DNA from: a phage
Length of the DNA stretch: 42,242 nucleotides
Direction: 5' to 3' (one strand)
Sequence record: PX871047.1
Below the pieces are notes generated by a model. The model was not told where the DNA came from. It was given only the letters and a program-made list of their open reading frames with translations, and did no database searches. Each line of letters opens with the position of its first letter. The first letter of the stretch is position 1. Positions 16,696 to 34,434 of the stretch are shown here, piece by piece. A program made the translations under genes and the position numbers.

Positions 16696-16700
16696 AACTA

Positions 16701-16723
16701 AGGCCCCGAAAGGGGCCTTTTTC
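16701..16723. terminator. bidirectional intrinsic terminator
   Basis: AGGCCCC / GGGGCCT stem, GAAA loop, TTTTCT; near-identical to terminator at 29235. Confidence 0.7.
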
Positions 16724-16900
16724 TCACTCACTTTTGAATGGCATTTCGTAGAAGTTAGTTAACTGACCTCTGTCACTCCGTTCTGTCATCTCTTTTGTCG
16801 CCTCTTCCTTGCTACCTACGGCGTAAATATCAACCCACTCATCCCATTCTTCGTCATATACGCGGATAACGTATATTGCCCCCATTGTGCCTTCACGCAT
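16724..16900 (-). CDS. hypothetical small acidic protein
   Basis: Last gene of reverse-strand island; track ORF 16724..16930 begins at TTG; internal ATG 16900 chosen, start uncertain. Confidence 0.4.
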   Translation of the reverse strand: MREGTMGAIYVIRVYDEEWDEWVDIYAVGSKEEATKEMTERSDRGQLTNFYEMPFKSE

Positions 16901-17462
16901 TTGGGTAAATCCCCAGGATTCTATTGGCAACCGTGGCCGCGGTTAATGTAATCTCACCAGGAATGATGGCGACGTCATGGCATACTACCCCATCAATATC
17001 GTACAGGTAGCCACGGCTATCCCCGTCAAACGTGTAGCCGTCTCGGTGCAAGCGGACGATTCGCACGTCATGCCCAGCGGCGACGATAGGGGCAACTTCA
17101 CTGGCAAACCCACCGTCGGACACCACAAAAACTTCGTCGCCGTCAGGCAAGTTTTCAGCGAGATACTTACCGAAATAATCATTGCCAAGTACAGGCTTAA
17201 TGAATTGCTCCGAGATAGCAATCATGAACTGACGTCGCGACAACCCATTAAGGAAACATTCTGGCTTTTCTTTCCGTGCCCGGTCGTCGTAGCCGTCGAG
17301 AAATTCGTGGTAAGCATCCGGGCCTAACGCTGCCCGAGCAATATTGAACATTGGATTCTTGAAACTGGTAGTTCCTTTCGCAAAGCCCATTTCTACCATC
17401 GCCATAGCAAGCGTGTCTTTCCCGCAACCCGCAGGGCCATTAAGGATAATTACCTTAGCCAT
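16893..17462 (-). CDS. P-loop nucleotide/polynucleotide kinase-like protein
   Basis: Walker A GPAGCGKDT near N-terminus; start overlaps stop of upstream phosphatase gene. Confidence 0.6.
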   Translation of the reverse strand: MAKVIILNGPAGCGKDTLAMAMVEMGFAKGTTSFKNPMFNIARAALGPDAYHEFLDGYDDRARKEKPECFLNGLSRRQFMIAISEQFIKPVLGNDYFGKYLAENLPDGDEVFVVSDGGFASEVAPIVAAGHDVRIVRLHRDGYTFDGDSRGYLYDIDGVVCHDVAIIPGEITLTAATVANRILGIYPNA

Positions 17463-17947
17463 TATTTATTGCTCCCGTGTGATTTTAAGTGTGTAGAGTT
17501 CCCGTTACAGTCGTATTCAGTAACCGCGTGCGTAGTGACTCCTAAGCCGCGGAAATGCTTAATCACCGCGGGCGAGTCGTCGAATGCGCACAATATTCTC
17601 TCCAGCCCGATAGCACGCAACACCTCTTCTTTAATTACGATGTCTTTTCTGTTGTCGTGTTTGCTGCGCATGATTAGCTGATAAAATTCGACGCGGTGGC
17701 GCTGCAGCCACATTCTGGTTTCTTTTTCTGCATCATCACTGCGGCCCGTTAAAATAATAACGGCATAGCGACGATTAAGGGCGTTACACAGTTCGATGTT
17801 ATCTTTAATGGGCGCGTCATCTTTGCAGGCCATGTTAAAAGGCTTCCACGCCCATGTTTCGTTGTAGTTATCTTTCGGTAGCAGGTGTAAACGATGAGTA
17901 CCGTCCGCCAATGTCCCGTCTAAATCGAAAATCACAATATCTTTCAT
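17462..17947 (-). CDS. HAD-family phosphatase, T4 polynucleotide kinase-phosphatase phosphatase-domain-like
   Basis: N-terminal FDLDGTLA (DxDxT) motif; later TGR...DNRKDIVIKEEV block recalled as similar to T4 Pnkp phosphatase domain. Confidence 0.55.
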   Translation of the reverse strand: MKDIVIFDLDGTLADGTHRLHLLPKDNYNETWAWKPFNMACKDDAPIKDNIELCNALNRRYAVIILTGRSDDAEKETRMWLQRHRVEFYQLIMRSKHDNRKDIVIKEEVLRAIGLERILCAFDDSPAVIKHFRGLGVTTHAVTEYDCNGNSTHLKSHGSNK

Positions 17948-19074
17948 CCCAGCATCTCCGGTGAAATAGTTAAACGTGCAACCTCACCATATTCGGCGCT
18001 ATAAGTAATTACATTTGCACTGCGCCCTGACATCCAACCGCCGCGTGAGGCATAGGCGTCTTTAGCCGCTAAGGTTCGGTGTTGCTCAACAATCATGTTA
18101 CGGCTTTCTACAATCTTCTGATGGTGCAGGTGGCCTACGTGGGCGTAGCTGTAAACACTCTCTCCGAACGCTTTGCGGAACTTAGCAATCATTACCGGTT
18201 CGATAGCGTCGAATCGTGCTTTATGCCCGTGATGGAAGAACAGCGTCGTTTTGCCGTGTTGCACCATCTTGTAAACATCCGGCGACGTATCGACGAACAC
18301 ACGAGGCTCATTGTCGTACAGCGTGCTGAACATCTCAGCCAGCCAAATCATTCCGCTTTCGTCGTGGTTCCCTTGCACGATAAGCAAGCGAACATTTTTA
18401 TGCTTAACGAGTGCCATATCAACAACACGGCGGACCATACGAATCATGTAGCGGACCAGTTTCTGATAGCGCGTGTCCGCGTCAAGAACATGACCACTCG
18501 CTGGCGTAACCGCATCCAGGCTATCGAAGTGTGCAAGGTCACCTAGCAGATTAATAACACCCGTTCCTGCATCCGGCGCTTTCTGAAACGCAGCATCGAA
18601 CCAGCGAGAGAACAGGTCTTCCGCAATCTTCATATCCCAGTCGTCGCCGCTCTCGTCGGCCCAGGCCAGCATACCGAGATGGAAATCAGACACAGTGTAA
18701 AGGTTGAGTAGTTTATCGTCGCGTTTAGCGCGGGCGGCTTTAACAGGCGCAACTGGCGTAATCTCTGACTTCATGCCTTCGATTACGGCTTTCATCAACT
18801 CGACCTGACGTTCGGCGTCAGTGTCTGTCTTAACCCATTGCAACTTAGTGTTGCCGGACTCATCCACCAGGGACGACGTCCCTTTAATCTTGTAGCCGTC
18901 AGGAACAAGGTGACTAACGTCACGCCCGTGACCCACGCCTTTCTTGGCCAGCTTCGCTTTACGGATACGAATAACGCGGTCTGAGATGCCGTATTTACGG
19001 GCAATGTCGATATTCTTCATCCCGGCGTTCAATTCTTCCTGTAACTGTTCGTCGGTTATTTTCTTCCGGGCCAT
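17944..19074 (-). CDS. HTH-domain calcineurin-like metallophosphoesterase
   Basis: N-terminal HTH-like NIDIARKYGISDRVIRIRK; metallophosphoesterase motifs DFHLG, GDLAHFD, GNHD, HHGH, GHLHH. Confidence 0.6.
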   Translation of the reverse strand: MARKKITDEQLQEELNAGMKNIDIARKYGISDRVIRIRKAKLAKKGVGHGRDVSHLVPDGYKIKGTSSLVDESGNTKLQWVKTDTDAERQVELMKAVIEGMKSEITPVAPVKAARAKRDDKLLNLYTVSDFHLGMLAWADESGDDWDMKIAEDLFSRWFDAAFQKAPDAGTGVINLLGDLAHFDSLDAVTPASGHVLDADTRYQKLVRYMIRMVRRVVDMALVKHKNVRLLIVQGNHDESGMIWLAEMFSTLYDNEPRVFVDTSPDVYKMVQHGKTTLFFHHGHKARFDAIEPVMIAKFRKAFGESVYSYAHVGHLHHQKIVESRNMIVEQHRTLAAKDAYASRGGWMSGRSANVITYSAEYGEVARLTISPEMLG

Positions 19075-19112
19075 GCTTATGTCCTCATGTGTAGGATTTG
19101 TCCTATACTAGC

Positions 19113-19304
19113 TTACTTCTCGTTAACATTCGAGTTGCAAGCCCAGATTAAAATAAAGACCCACGGCAGCAGAGCCCAGCCAAGAAACAGGTTAGCCATG
19201 AATATTGCCAACTTCGCTTTATGGCCACGCATATGGGCTACTAAAAACGGGATAAAATAAACTAAAACGATAATGATTAAGAAGAACATAGTAATGCCAG
19301 TCAT
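19113..19304 (-). CDS. superinfection-immunity-like small membrane protein
   Basis: Two TM segments with RGH...NLFLGWALLPW pattern; AGGAGC RBS; first gene after promoter 19346-19374. Confidence 0.5.
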   Translation of the reverse strand: MTGITMFFLIIIVLVYFIPFLVAHMRGHKAKLAIFMANLFLGWALLPWVFILIWACNSNVNEK

Positions 19305-19345
19305 GGTGTAGCTCCTGTTTGAGTTAACATTGTTGGTGTAAGTGA

Positions 19346-19374
19346 ATAGTATCCTATTATGTTGGGGTGTGCAA
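19346..19374 (-). promoter_or_regulatory. promoter with embedded AATAG-N4-CTATT dyad (type A)
   Basis: Minus strand TTGCAC - 17 nt - TACTAT; 33-bp block 19342-19374 identical to reverse complement of 41273-41305. Confidence 0.6.
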
Positions 19375-19481
19375 GTAATGTGTTAGAATTATTTTGCGCC
19401 TAGTGTCGCACACGAAAAGCGGGTGGTTCCCGTCTGGCGCATTCACATTAACCAGTAACCTCTTAACCAAAGGATTAAAGA

Positions 19482-19898
19482 ATGAAACTTTCTGATTTTT
19501 ATTACGAAGCTGAGGCAGAAAAAGGCGCCCGTATGCCGATCCCACTGAAAGACGGCACCGATTCAGGGGAGTGGCTGAACGTTGTTTCACCGGAGGCAGA
19601 CGTTGCCGTTAAAGCTATGAGGGCGTTTACACTTGCGTACCGCGCGGCATTAGGTAAATTGAAACCGCTTCGTGATAAATGCGAGGAACTGAAAGATTTC
19701 TCGGAATACAATATCAAGATGGAAGACGCCGCAACGGACCTTAACCGCCAGTTAGCGCTTGAACTGGTTAACGGTTGGAGTCTCGACGATGAATTTAATA
19801 AAGAGAACCTAAATACTCTTTTCTCACAATATACACGACTCGCTGAACACGTTGTTGTTTTCCACAATGAACAGCTACGCCAATTGCAGGAAAAGTAG
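19482..19898 (+). CDS. tail assembly chaperone (G-like, putative)
   Basis: Acidic 138-aa ORF directly upstream of tape measure; followed by -1 frame ORF. Confidence 0.45.
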   Translation: MKLSDFYYEAEAEKGARMPIPLKDGTDSGEWLNVVSPEADVAVKAMRAFTLAYRAALGKLKPLRDKCEELKDFSEYNIKMEDAATDLNRQLALELVNGWSLDDEFNKENLNTLFSQYTRLAEHVVVFHNEQLRQLQEK

Positions 19899-20263
19899 AC
19901 GCGTTGCTCCAGTTTGCCCGTTGGAACTTCATAACCCGCCACAAACGGCGGGAGTTTGACAGTATCGCAGATGGGCATAAAGCCGCGCTAATTGCTATGG
20001 GGGCTATGCAAGACGCGCCGGAAGCAACGCAGGACACCGGGCCGGAATGCCCCCCTGAACTATTAACCACCTTCGAGAAGTACCGGGAAATCAAATTTAC
20101 CCGCCGAGTGGATGACGACGGCATCAAGATGTACCCGCGCGAACAGTTAAGATGGTCGGATTTAGTGGCATACAGCACCGTTTCAGGCCAGAATATAGGC
20201 ATGTTTGAATCTGACATCATCATGAGCTTAGACGCTATTTTCGAGGGTAGAAACGATGGCTGA
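19889..20263 (+). CDS. tail assembly chaperone frameshift extension (GT-like, putative)
   Basis: ORF in -1 frame relative to 19482..19898, open from 19871; candidate slip site A_AAG at 19892-19895 next to TAG stop. Confidence 0.35.
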   Translation, partial: GKVDALLQFARWNFITRHKRREFDSIADGHKAALIAMGAMQDAPEATQDTGPECPPELLTTFEKYREIKFTRRVDDDGIKMYPREQLRWSDLVAYSTVSGQNIGMFESDIIMSLDAIFEGRNDG

Positions 20264-32043: not shown

Positions 32044-32171
32044 TCCAGCACCCACAGATAAATTGCGATGAACATACCTAATACGGCTACAATCATGCCG
32101 TATTGGCCCTCGTGACAGTAGACACCGGCGGCAAATCCCGCCAGTACTGTGATAATCAGTTTACTTAGCAT
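32040..32171 (-). CDS. small membrane protein (43 aa)
   Basis: Start overlaps 3' end of polymerase gene; hydrophobic; ATGA-coupled downstream. Confidence 0.35.
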   Translation of the reverse strand: MLSKLIITVLAGFAAGVYCHEGQYGMIVAVLGMFIAIYLWVLE

Positions 32172-34434
32172 AACGGTACACCTCTCCCCCAGCCCATGTT
32201 AACGGGAACCCTTCGGCCCACTCAGGTAATGAGCATAGCAGGTCACCCATCTCTTTAACCGTGTACTCTGGCGTGTCTGGCGTTTCGGCAACACATTCGT
32301 CATGTACGTGGAGTACAATTGGGTAGCCCGCCGCCTCGACCGTCAGGAGTCCGTTAACCAGTAAATCACGGCACAACGCCTGGATGATGTTTTCACACAA
32401 TTTTCCGCCGTGTGTGTACAAAGTTGTCCACTGGCGGGTGGTCTGATTTTCGCCCTGGTATTTAATGCGAACGTTAGTTGTTACACGCCCGTCCTCGTCG
32501 GTCTCTTTAGTGACGCTTAAGCCTATGCCAGGGTAGGACATGATGCGCCCCGACGGCAGCTCCACGCACAACCACCAACCTGGCACAAAGTTACCTTGTC
32601 TGTCTTTCTCCTTAGTACGCCAGATGCGAATAGCTCTGTCGCCGTTGGGGCGGACTCTGGCCCCCGCCCAAAACTCTCGTCCCGGATTTCTAATTGCAGC
32701 AATCACCGAATCCTTAAGGTCGTTCCAGAATTTCACTGTTTCCGGATGGGCCTCACGCCACATGCGCTTGATAGCATCGCAAGTGCGCCAGACTTCTTTA
32801 GGCAGCACATAAGAGGCCCGTTCATCCTTTTTACCGGGTTTTGGGGGCCGCTTAGCCTCCTGAATCCGCGCCCATTCATAGCCTCGGGCAGTGGCGGCCC
32901 ATATATGGTCAGGGAATGTTCCCCGCATTGTCTCCGTCATTTTAAAGAGGTCCAGCCCGTAAGTTTTAGCCATAGTCATGAAGGCCCCCACGCCCCCCTC
33001 GTAGCCGAGGCCGAGCTCGCAACATTTCCCGACCTGTCGCAGGTCTTTACGGGTGGCTTTCAGTTCTATGGGGTCCATACCAAACATCTTGCCCGCAGTG
33101 GCGCAATAAATATCAATCCCCGCGCGGAACGTCTCAAGCGCGGATGTCTCCCCCGCGGTCCAGGCCAACCCGCGCCCTTCTACGTTTGAGTAGTCGGCAA
33201 CGAGCAACTTATTACCCTTTTCAGGGATGATGCAACTGCGAACAGTCGAGGCTGTCAGCTTGGATACGTCGAAACGACGGTGCGCCCGACCCTTTAGCAG
33301 CAGATTGATGCCGAACGATAGGGGGTTGAGACGACGGTTCCAGTCTTCGTCGGACTCCCACGGCTGGCGCACAAGTTTCTTTTCCTCGTTAGTCGGGTCG
33401 TCGTGGTAGTACCCGCGCGACAGGTTCTGCGGTTGGAACCCTTTACCCGCAAATCGTAAAGTGCGCTTTGCCCCACCGTACTGGATGCAACCGCGGCGGC
33501 GGCCGTCTTTGGACCGTCCTAGCAGGAGCGGTTTGTATTTTGTCGACGCCGTGGAGGCCGCGCCGAGGCGCATCTCAATGATTGTGCGCGCATCGTCAGG
33601 TAAGTCGTCGTCCTCTAGCAAACCTTCGAGCGTTGCTTTCTGTGCATTATAGATATTGTAGGCCGGTGCCAGCTCCCGAAGGATTGGCAGGAAGTCTTTA
33701 CCCGTTAGCTTCCCGCCAAATTTAGCCCTGGCCTCGTTTTTTAGCTCTTGCTTGTGGCGTTCAACTGCTGCTACCGCCGCCTCAGCAAGAGCCGCATCAA
33801 CAAAGAAGCCTCGGTCGTTGATTAACTGGTCAAGTTCAAGTACACGGTCCTCGAAATCGGAGTTACCCCAACGTGGCAGCTTATGGAAGACTTCACGCAT
33901 CGCTGTGATGTCGCTCACGGCATACTTGATGAACAGGGCCCACTCGTCAGGGTGAGTTTCTGCGGTGTAGCGGCGGATTTTGTAGTTCTTCGGCGTCGGT
34001 TTAGAGAAACGCTTAATCAGCGCCTTGCCGCGTTTATCTTTTGCATTGTCGGCGGATACGCCCAGCACTTCGCACAATGCGTCAAGTGACCCCGGCAGCG
34101 CGTGACGAAACGCCCAAATCATCGTATCAATGGTGTTGCTTACCGGAATATCAAAGTCCCAGCAGTGCTTCATGACGAGCCTGTCGAACATTGAGCCGTT
34201 GTGCCACACCATCTTAATACGACTGTTTGGCTTAACCAGGCGGCGCAAGGCGCGATGCAAATCCCCCGGCATGTCGCTGCCGTCAGTGCAGTCCCATACC
34301 TGAACAGGCTCGTCATCAAAAGCATAGGTGCAGATGAGCACTTCGGTAGTCGGGTGTTCGGCGTAAGCATAGGAGCCGACTTTCTTCAAATCGGCTTCGG
34401 AGAAGGTTTCAAAGTCTAAGAACAGATAACTCAT
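32161..34434 (-). CDS. DNA polymerase, family A, with 3'-5' exonuclease domain
   Basis: Exo motif LFLDFETFS; pol motifs DYSNVEGR, K...LGLGYEGG, VHDECV. Confidence 0.85.
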   Translation of the reverse strand: MSYLFLDFETFSEADLKKVGSYAYAEHPTTEVLICTYAFDDEPVQVWDCTDGSDMPGDLHRALRRLVKPNSRIKMVWHNGSMFDRLVMKHCWDFDIPVSNTIDTMIWAFRHALPGSLDALCEVLGVSADNAKDKRGKALIKRFSKPTPKNYKIRRYTAETHPDEWALFIKYAVSDITAMREVFHKLPRWGNSDFEDRVLELDQLINDRGFFVDAALAEAAVAAVERHKQELKNEARAKFGGKLTGKDFLPILRELAPAYNIYNAQKATLEGLLEDDDLPDDARTIIEMRLGAASTASTKYKPLLLGRSKDGRRRGCIQYGGAKRTLRFAGKGFQPQNLSRGYYHDDPTNEEKKLVRQPWESDEDWNRRLNPLSFGINLLLKGRAHRRFDVSKLTASTVRSCIIPEKGNKLLVADYSNVEGRGLAWTAGETSALETFRAGIDIYCATAGKMFGMDPIELKATRKDLRQVGKCCELGLGYEGGVGAFMTMAKTYGLDLFKMTETMRGTFPDHIWAATARGYEWARIQEAKRPPKPGKKDERASYVLPKEVWRTCDAIKRMWREAHPETVKFWNDLKDSVIAAIRNPGREFWAGARVRPNGDRAIRIWRTKEKDRQGNFVPGWWLCVELPSGRIMSYPGIGLSVTKETDEDGRVTTNVRIKYQGENQTTRQWTTLYTHGGKLCENIIQALCRDLLVNGLLTVEAAGYPIVLHVHDECVAETPDTPEYTVKEMGDLLCSLPEWAEGFPLTWAGGEVYRYAK

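Follow-up and report, generated by a model that had tools for sequence, protein, structure and literature searches.

What is the function of a protein that joins a helix-turn-helix (HTH) to a metallophosphoesterase (MPE), and that a phage encodes on the minus strand beside its tail genes? The gene lies in a 42.2-kb window, the whole stretch of DNA analysed here (42,242 nucleotides, PX871047.1), which is the nearly complete genome of a Kagunavirus-like (Guernseyvirinae) siphophage. The HTH-MPE fusion is the standard architecture of a common, strongly conserved, phage-specific family rather than an oddity. We tentatively favour the view that the window MPE is a DNA nuclease which is tethered by its HTH, works independently of Rad50 and breaks down host DNA or acts on DNA ends, supplying deoxynucleoside monophosphates (dNMPs). 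The gene and the domains of its product are as follows.

17944 to 19074, minus strand: coding sequence of the HTH-MPE protein, 376 residues, PHROG 704.
18943 to 19053, minus strand: N-terminal three-helix HTH, residues 8-44 (structural model, weak GerE/FixJ matches, Pfam HTH matches within the family, N-terminal hidden Markov model).
18901 to 18942, minus strand: flexible linker, residues 45-58 (low model confidence, poor conservation).
18760 to 18900, minus strand: family-specific β-hairpin and long helix, residues 59-105 (alignment, structural model).
17947 to 18720, minus strand: MPE core, residues 119-376 (alignment, structural model, fold search).

The open reading frame (ORF) starts with an ATG, with a GAGGA Shine-Dalgarno sequence 8 nt upstream. 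Its product matches PHROG 704 (“DNA repair exonuclease”) over the full length (E 1.2e-167, residues 4-375 on profile positions 2-389 of 390), and this match, the structural model and the HTH profiles of the family establish that the fusion proposed in the initial annotation of the locus is real. The HTH string quoted there, NIDIARKYGISDRVIRIRKAK, corresponds to residues 21-41, and the full set of MPE motifs reported there was also recovered: DFHLG at residues 130-134, GDLAHFD at 178-184, GNHD at 235-238, HHGH at 281-284 and GHLHH at 314-318. Within the core they form motif I (D130-x-H132), motif II (G178-D179-x-x-H182), motif III (G235-N236-H237-D238), motif IV (H281-H284) and motifs V/VI (G314-H315-x-H317), and a family signature, VTPxSGHxLDAD, occupies residues 189-200. 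An alignment of 36 family members with 33-50% identity contains D130, H132, G134, G178, D179, T190, N236, H237, H282, G283, G304, G314 and H317 as invariant residues, and H182, D184, D198, D238, H281, H284 and H315 (the last in at least 90% of sequences) as nearly invariant ones. With its metal ligands conserved in this way, the two-metal catalytic centre is intact and under selection. Mean identity is 45% in the MPE core versus 24% in the N-terminal module.

A scan of 1.84 billion cluster representatives (50% identity clusters) retrieved 4,640 relatives at E ≤ 1e-3, of which 1,160 also reach E ≤ 1e-30; their length is mostly 370-420 residues. At least 100 residues precede the DxHxG motif in 139 of 150 family representatives, and a hidden Markov model of the first 46 residues matches 126 of these 139. 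By tblastn, the protein is present in 2,041 of 50,697 phage records, or about 4% of deposited phage genomes. Carriers include Guernseyvirinae, Drexlerviridae, Klebsiella Webervirus-type, Vibrio, Rhodobacter, Campylobacter and Erwinia (Autographiviridae) phages. Many Kagunavirus proteins are 97-99% identical to the window MPE, and phage T1 gp16 is a family member with 45% identity over all 376 residues. The HTH is thus constant across the family and the gene is widespread in phages, so that the fusion is a standard design, and its earlier description as unusual does not hold for PHROG 704. Relatives are annotated as “DNA repair exonuclease” or “calcineurin-like phosphoesterase”, and one as “transcriptional regulator”. 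The literature on Guernseyvirinae, Kagunavirus, T1 and phage MPE function yielded no experimental characterisation of PHROG 704, and the annotation of this group is guesswork. Membership of a standard characterised phosphoesterase family with no phage-specific context would have spoken against the initial annotation; we find instead a family that is phage-specific and uncharacterised.

The AlphaFold2 model, built from the 36-sequence alignment, has a mean predicted local distance difference test (pLDDT) score of 89.5 and a predicted template modelling score of 0.75. It comprises three N-terminal helices (residues 8-16, 21-28 and 32-44), a β-hairpin (61-85), a long helix (87-104) and the MPE core (119-376), whereas the linker (45-58) is of low confidence, with pLDDT below 50 at residues 48-52. 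The core adopts the four-layer α/β-β/α MPE fold and extends to the C-terminal residue, 376; all extra domains are N-terminal. The third HTH helix is basic (SDRVIRIRKAKLAKKG). The hairpin and helix segment at residues 59-105 carries a conserved KG.S...G...W.K motif with a nearly invariant W80, and is possibly a DNA-contacting or dimerisation element.

Domain searches with the window protein alone were less clear than the model. The protein remains below the Pfam gathering scores for PF00149 and PF12850 (18.9 bits versus a cutoff of 21.5, and 21.5 bits versus 27). The Pfam MPE models reach E ≤ 0.01 in only 9 of the 36 family members, and miss most of them because the family is too divergent. The GerE match of the window protein is likewise below threshold (15.7 bits versus a cutoff of 23.5), a weak FixJ-type HTH match is its sole NCBIfam result, PADLOC gave no match, and neither the protein sequence nor the family profile had a significant match among PDB sequences. 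Other PHROG 704 members match Pfam HTH models, namely HTH_8 (2.6e-7), HTH_28 (5e-6), HTH_23 (9e-6), Sigma70_r4 (1e-5) and also HTH_11. Structure prediction thus bears out a three-helix bundle followed by an MPE core, whereas the Pfam matches of the window protein itself are sub-threshold; the HTH assignment rests on family-level evidence, and DNA binding is a prediction from sequence and model.

The closest structural neighbours of the MPE core are the DNA nucleases Mre11, SbcD and DP1, and lambda-phosphatase-like folds rank low. Identity to Mre11/SbcD and to DP1, the proofreading exonuclease of archaeal PolD, is 12-18%. Motifs I to III of the window protein (SDFHLG/GDLAH/GNHD) resemble their Mre11/SbcD versions. 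The window MPE lacks the C-terminal capping domain carried by Mre11/SbcD and has no polymerase partner such as DP1 works with, whereas the HTH and hairpin at its N-terminus occur in the phage family alone. No SMC-like ORF that could encode a Rad50/SbcC partner was found in the window or in an annotated relative. A search of BFVD returned family members and phage MPEs of about 400 residues, none of them labelled A1, gp47 or NinI.

The same structural neighbours are also consistent with the main rival to our reading, DNA-end processing for phage replication or repair. The protein would then be an exonuclease that acts in repair, recombination or replication of phage DNA, host DNA would not be its target, and the neighbouring HAD protein, as a 3'-phosphatase, would clean blocked 3' ends. 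Taken literally, the database label “DNA repair exonuclease” means just this, and the occurrence of the family in apparent prophages accords with it. However, the window has recombination proteins of its own, a PHROG 69 exonuclease paired with a Gp2.5-like annealing protein, as T1 has RecE and Erf, and the missing Rad50/SbcC partner also counts against it. We regard this end-processing role as less likely than the favoured reading, and as the strongest of the alternatives.

Known phage systems provide precedents for the favoured reading. In phage T5, the predicted metallophosphatase A1 is necessary and sufficient for degradation of the host chromosome, A1 depends on A2 as a DNA-binding partner, and the dNMPs set free are dephosphorylated by Dmp (bioRxiv 10.64898/2026.04.02.716235). 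The window locus is reminiscent of this pre-early module in combining an MPE enzyme, a putative DNA-binding function and a neighbouring PHROG 415 phosphatase, and a T5-like Vibrio phage has the gene order A2, A1, PHROG 415-type gene. A1 and the window family share the local motifs (G/S)NHD..S.WL, HGH and GH.H. They differ in that the T5 DNA binder is a separate protein and A1 has 556 residues with a different N-terminal half, whereas the HTH is fused in the window protein; moreover, T5 discards dNMPs, whereas the window phage also has a dNMP-kinase-like gene. T5 A1 matches PHROG 1745 alone. The parallel with A1, A2 and Dmp is a functional and architectural analogy; shared ancestry could be traced no further than the superfamily.

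Gp48 of mycobacteriophage A10ZJ24 is a precedent for a phage MPE that attacks host DNA on its own. It is expressed early, is toxic to the host and breaks down linear, circular and genomic DNA, with activity both in vitro and in vivo (PMC12287305). Any relation of Gp48 to the window MPE would be at the superfamily level only, and its motif I aspartate is residue 10, which leaves no N-terminal HTH module. T1 and TLS degrade the host genome and reuse its nucleotides, and according to the TLS/T1 re-annotation of 2024 the responsible gene is unidentified (PMC11447400).

We propose the following mechanism. The two-metal centre of the MPE would cleave DNA phosphodiester bonds without Rad50/SbcC, while the N-terminal HTH, on its flexible linker, would keep the enzyme on duplex DNA. 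The protein would break down the host chromosome or trim DNA ends to yield dNMPs, and the coupled Dmp/PNKP-type HAD phosphatase and dNMP-kinase-like P-loop protein may then process the dNMPs released. Such an arrangement would be a fused, compact functional analogue of the T5 nuclease A1, the DNA binder A2 and Dmp. The gene would be transcribed from its own minus-strand islet in the tail module, together with a superinfection-immunity gene. This islet contains five genes at 16700-19481, between the plus-strand major tail gene and the tail assembly chaperones, and the MPE gene is the second of them. Its other elements are listed here.

19305 to 19481, no strand assigned: divergent intergenic region ahead of the islet, with strong conservation in related phages (comparison of relatives).
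19113 to 19304, minus strand: first islet gene, superinfection immunity protein (Imm_superinfect, PF14373, 4.5e-14), a 63-residue membrane protein (Pfam, PHROG).
17462 to 17947, minus strand: HAD phosphatase, 161 residues, accessory partner (Pfam HAD_PNKP, PHROG 415).
16893 to 17462, minus strand: P-loop protein, 189 residues, dNMP-kinase-like, accessory partner (PHROG 139).
16724 to 16930, minus strand: ORF of 68 residues, last islet gene (ORF list).
16700 to 16719, minus strand: GC-rich hairpin and T-run resembling an intrinsic terminator, at the islet end and facing the end of the major tail gene (terminator scan).

The 3.1-kb region around the MPE gene shares about 90% nucleotide identity with Escherichia phages EcoPhCCP1, ST20, K1ind1-3 and others, and the gene order agrees with that of an annotated relative. 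Across shared loci the MPE is 97-99% conserved and its neighbours down to 70-85%. The superinfection immunity protein occurs as two distinct variants among otherwise near-identical phages, with about 70% and 89-97% identity to the window copy. The MPE stop codon overlaps the HAD start in an ATGA, and the HAD stop overlaps the P-loop start in a TAATG; because of these overlaps, the three genes are translationally coupled.

The upstream region of the islet bears on a further proposal of the initial annotation, that the protein is a phosphatase regulating its own promoter. The HTH would then occupy an operator at the islet promoter, and the MPE domain would be a protein or signalling phosphatase. 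The HTH itself and the single relative named as a transcriptional regulator are in line with this. However, no inverted repeat or dyad was found at 19290-19500, nothing else points to regulation, and we consider autoregulation extremely improbable. A sigma-70 consensus scan gave no convincing minus-strand promoter upstream of the islet. Upstream of the first islet gene, at 19395-19440 on the minus strand, lies a short GC hairpin that leads into a T-run (CGGGAACCACCCGCTTTTCG) and is conserved.

Which substrates do the two downstream proteins act on? The HAD protein passes the Pfam HAD_PNKP model (PF25109) with 69.5 bits versus a cutoff of 27.6, a result that also speaks for end processing, and it matches the phosphatase domains of Pnkp1 (3.7e-6) and T4 Pnkp (2e-4). 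It belongs to PHROG 415 (6.5e-66), as does the 5'-dNMP phosphatase Dmp of T5 (3.6e-57), whereas a direct BLASTP comparison with Dmp aligns only the HAD motif I region (E 1e-3). Since PHROG 415 joins the two proteins and yet their pairwise similarity is weak, the predicted substrate of the HAD protein is ambiguous between PNKP-type 3' ends and dNMPs. Relatives call this gene “polynucleotide kinase”; the actual product is a 161-residue HAD phosphatase without a kinase domain, and the PHROG 415 label appears to mislead for all members of the group. The P-loop protein matches PHROG 139 (dNMP kinase) at 9e-46 and has no match to T4 Pnkp in the PDB, and its homologues pass the Pfam DNMK model (55.4 bits versus a cutoff of 27.1 for the kinase of an alphaproteobacterial locus). 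T1 encodes counterparts of both, gp64, 49% identical to the HAD protein, and gp62, 40% identical to the P-loop protein. In T1 (locus L115, 4948-6534) these two genes are split by an HNH endonuclease gene and lie in the left early region, far from the MPE gene gp16. The HAD and P-loop genes thus form the tighter unit, as T1 keeps both together and away from gp16.

Gene order was compared in 80 IMG/VR loci, with a related-locus search based on 9 sequences. Among the 28 loci whose MPE is 93-99% identical to that of the window, 14 have the HAD and P-loop pair directly downstream and the other 14 have no such pair within about 6 kb. One pair-less locus (L017, 7128-8079) has small ORFs and an HNH/AP2-type endonuclease in its place. 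The slot downstream of the MPE gene is a swap site, occupied by the HAD and P-loop pair or by small ORFs with an HNH/AP2-type endonuclease. No pair was found near the MPE in the 75-90%-identical Jersey-like group, nor beside it in T1-like, Rhodobacter and Vibrio members. Because the pair is missing from about half of the near-identical loci and from most of the wider family, the MPE is the core gene and the pair is an accessory cassette.

The order MPE, HAD, P-loop nevertheless recurs with MPEs of only 44-56% identity, in Erwinia phage S2 and in seven IMG/VR loci (four with the HAD gene only). In S2 the full order is 5'-3' exonuclease, endonuclease VII, MPE, HAD, P-loop and DNA ligase, and in T1 and tiwna the MPE gene follows a helicase, a nuclease and Dam; such DNA-metabolism neighbourhoods, with helicase, exonuclease, endonuclease VII or ligase genes, speak for the favoured nuclease and likewise for an end-processing exonuclease. 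Alphaproteobacterial chromosomal loci, which are presumably prophages (the gene-content scan of these copies covered one locus), present a further arrangement: 7 of about 20 (L090, L091, L092, L094, L097, L098 and L105) have a different phosphatase and/or a PHROG 139 dNMP kinase 1-3 kb downstream of the MPE gene. This phosphatase belongs to PHROG 318, annotated “deoxyribonucleoside 5'-monophosphate phosphatase”, and is unrelated to the PHROG 415 HAD protein of the enterobacterial phages. The order is thus conserved with a non-homologous phosphatase swapped in, which argues for a functional connection through mononucleotides and not through polynucleotide ends. What recurs beside the MPE gene is a dNMP kinase and a Dmp-like phosphatase, enzymes of mononucleotides rather than of end joining, which again counts against the end-processing role.

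These comparisons also bear on the suggestion, made when the gene was first described, that the MPE is a 2',3'-cyclic phosphodiesterase which completes an end-healing set together with its kinase and phosphatase neighbours. Such a set, active on RNA or DNA, would mend breaks made by host anticodon nucleases. The three genes are indeed adjacent and coupled, the phosphatase is of the HAD_PNKP type, a DNA ligase follows the trio in Erwinia S2, and bacterial Pnkp performs 2',3'-cyclic phosphodiesterase chemistry with an MPE domain. However, no ligase-sized or ligase-annotated ORF exists in the window or in the annotated close relative. Unlike the end-healing enzymes T4 Pnkp and bacterial Pnkp/Hen1, the window locus also has no polynucleotide-kinase-type domain: its P-loop protein resembles dNMP kinases and lacks a match to T4 Pnkp. 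The closest folds of the MPE are DNA nucleases, whereas folds like lambda phosphatase, the type of the MPE in bacterial Pnkp, rank low. It would in addition be redundant, as T4-type HAD phosphatases already resolve 2',3'-cyclic ends. Finally, the HAD and P-loop neighbours are dispensable, absent from about half of the 93-99%-identical loci, and a Dmp-like protein replaces the phosphatase in alphaproteobacterial loci. The end-healing set is thus very unlikely, whereas the more general idea of a nucleic-acid-directed phosphodiesterase, put forward at the same time, is one that our favoured reading shares.

The protein might also act on small molecules, as a phosphodiesterase or diphosphatase of cyclic nucleotides or oligonucleotides, NAD+ or deoxynucleoside triphosphates (dNTPs). 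With the HAD protein it would form a counter-defence that destroys immune signals, or an exclusion module resembling Metis or PUA-Cal-HAD near the Imm gene. The top Foldseek match, the cyclic nucleoside monophosphate phosphodiesterase Rv0805, points in this direction, as does the superinfection-immunity gene that heads the islet. Bacterial pairs of calcineurin-like and HAD proteins that act on NAD+ and dNTPs lend further support (bioRxiv 10.1101/2025.11.05.686725, 10.64898/2026.01.15.699771). In these Metis and PUA-Cal-HAD preprints the MPE and HAD pairs are bacterial, and the escape mutants map to denA of T4/T2 and not to the PHROG 704 family. We judge a small-molecule substrate improbable.

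Several points weigh against the host-DNA nuclease that we favour. The substrate of an MPE cannot be read from its fold, and the Foldseek E-values of Rv0805 are close to those of Mre11. The likeness to T5 is limited: an hhalign comparison of the family profile with a 7-sequence A1 profile aligned 20 columns around (G/S)NHD..S.WL with 36% probability, and neither sequence-profile nor profile-profile comparison extended the likeness to A1 past this one motif or detected similarity between T5 A2 and the HTH. By sequence, the HAD protein also fits PNKP-type phosphatases, and its pairwise similarity to Dmp is weak. In most of the family both neighbours are missing from the vicinity, and to have the same dNMPs dephosphorylated by one enzyme and phosphorylated by another seems contradictory, unless the phosphatase and the kinase differ in specificity. 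The bacterial chromosomal copies suggest temperate carriers, into which a host-destroying nuclease fits less easily. The model also provides no means of sparing the phage's own DNA.

Two observations concern other genes of the window. Next to the islet, the adjacent ORFs 19482-19898 and 19904-20263 divide PHROG 15027 (tail assembly chaperone, 259 positions) between them, the former matching its first half and the latter its second; ahead of a tape measure gene, a split match of this kind usually marks a programmed translational frameshift. The DNA polymerase ORF at 32161-34434 has an internal match to the endonuclease phrog_93 (residues 468-563, E 1.9e-10) together with split polymerase matches.

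For the biology of these phages, the favoured reading leads to a more specific proposal, which we consider doubtful at present. The HTH-MPE family, with T1 gp16 and the Kagunavirus protein, would be the host-chromosome nuclease of T1-like and Guernseyvirinae phages, a single-chain equivalent of A1 and A2. The Dmp/PNKP-like phosphatase and the dNMP kinase would sort the released dNMPs, some being salvaged and others removed; the latter perhaps include methylated dNMPs such as m6dAMP, which trigger the Metis and PUA-Cal-HAD defences. The neighbouring “polynucleotide kinase” can be re-annotated as a HAD protein with a phosphatase domain only, placed in one PHROG with the dNMP phosphatase of T5. 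The MPE family is a concrete candidate for the T1-type host-DNA degradation gene, present in about 4% of sequenced phages, and this candidate nuclease is now linked to a recurring nucleotide-processing gene trio. Host-DNA degradation is newly important because bacterial defences sense its by-products (m6dAMP), and to know which gene produces such by-products, and which neighbours might remove them, matters for phage host range and for therapeutic phage design.

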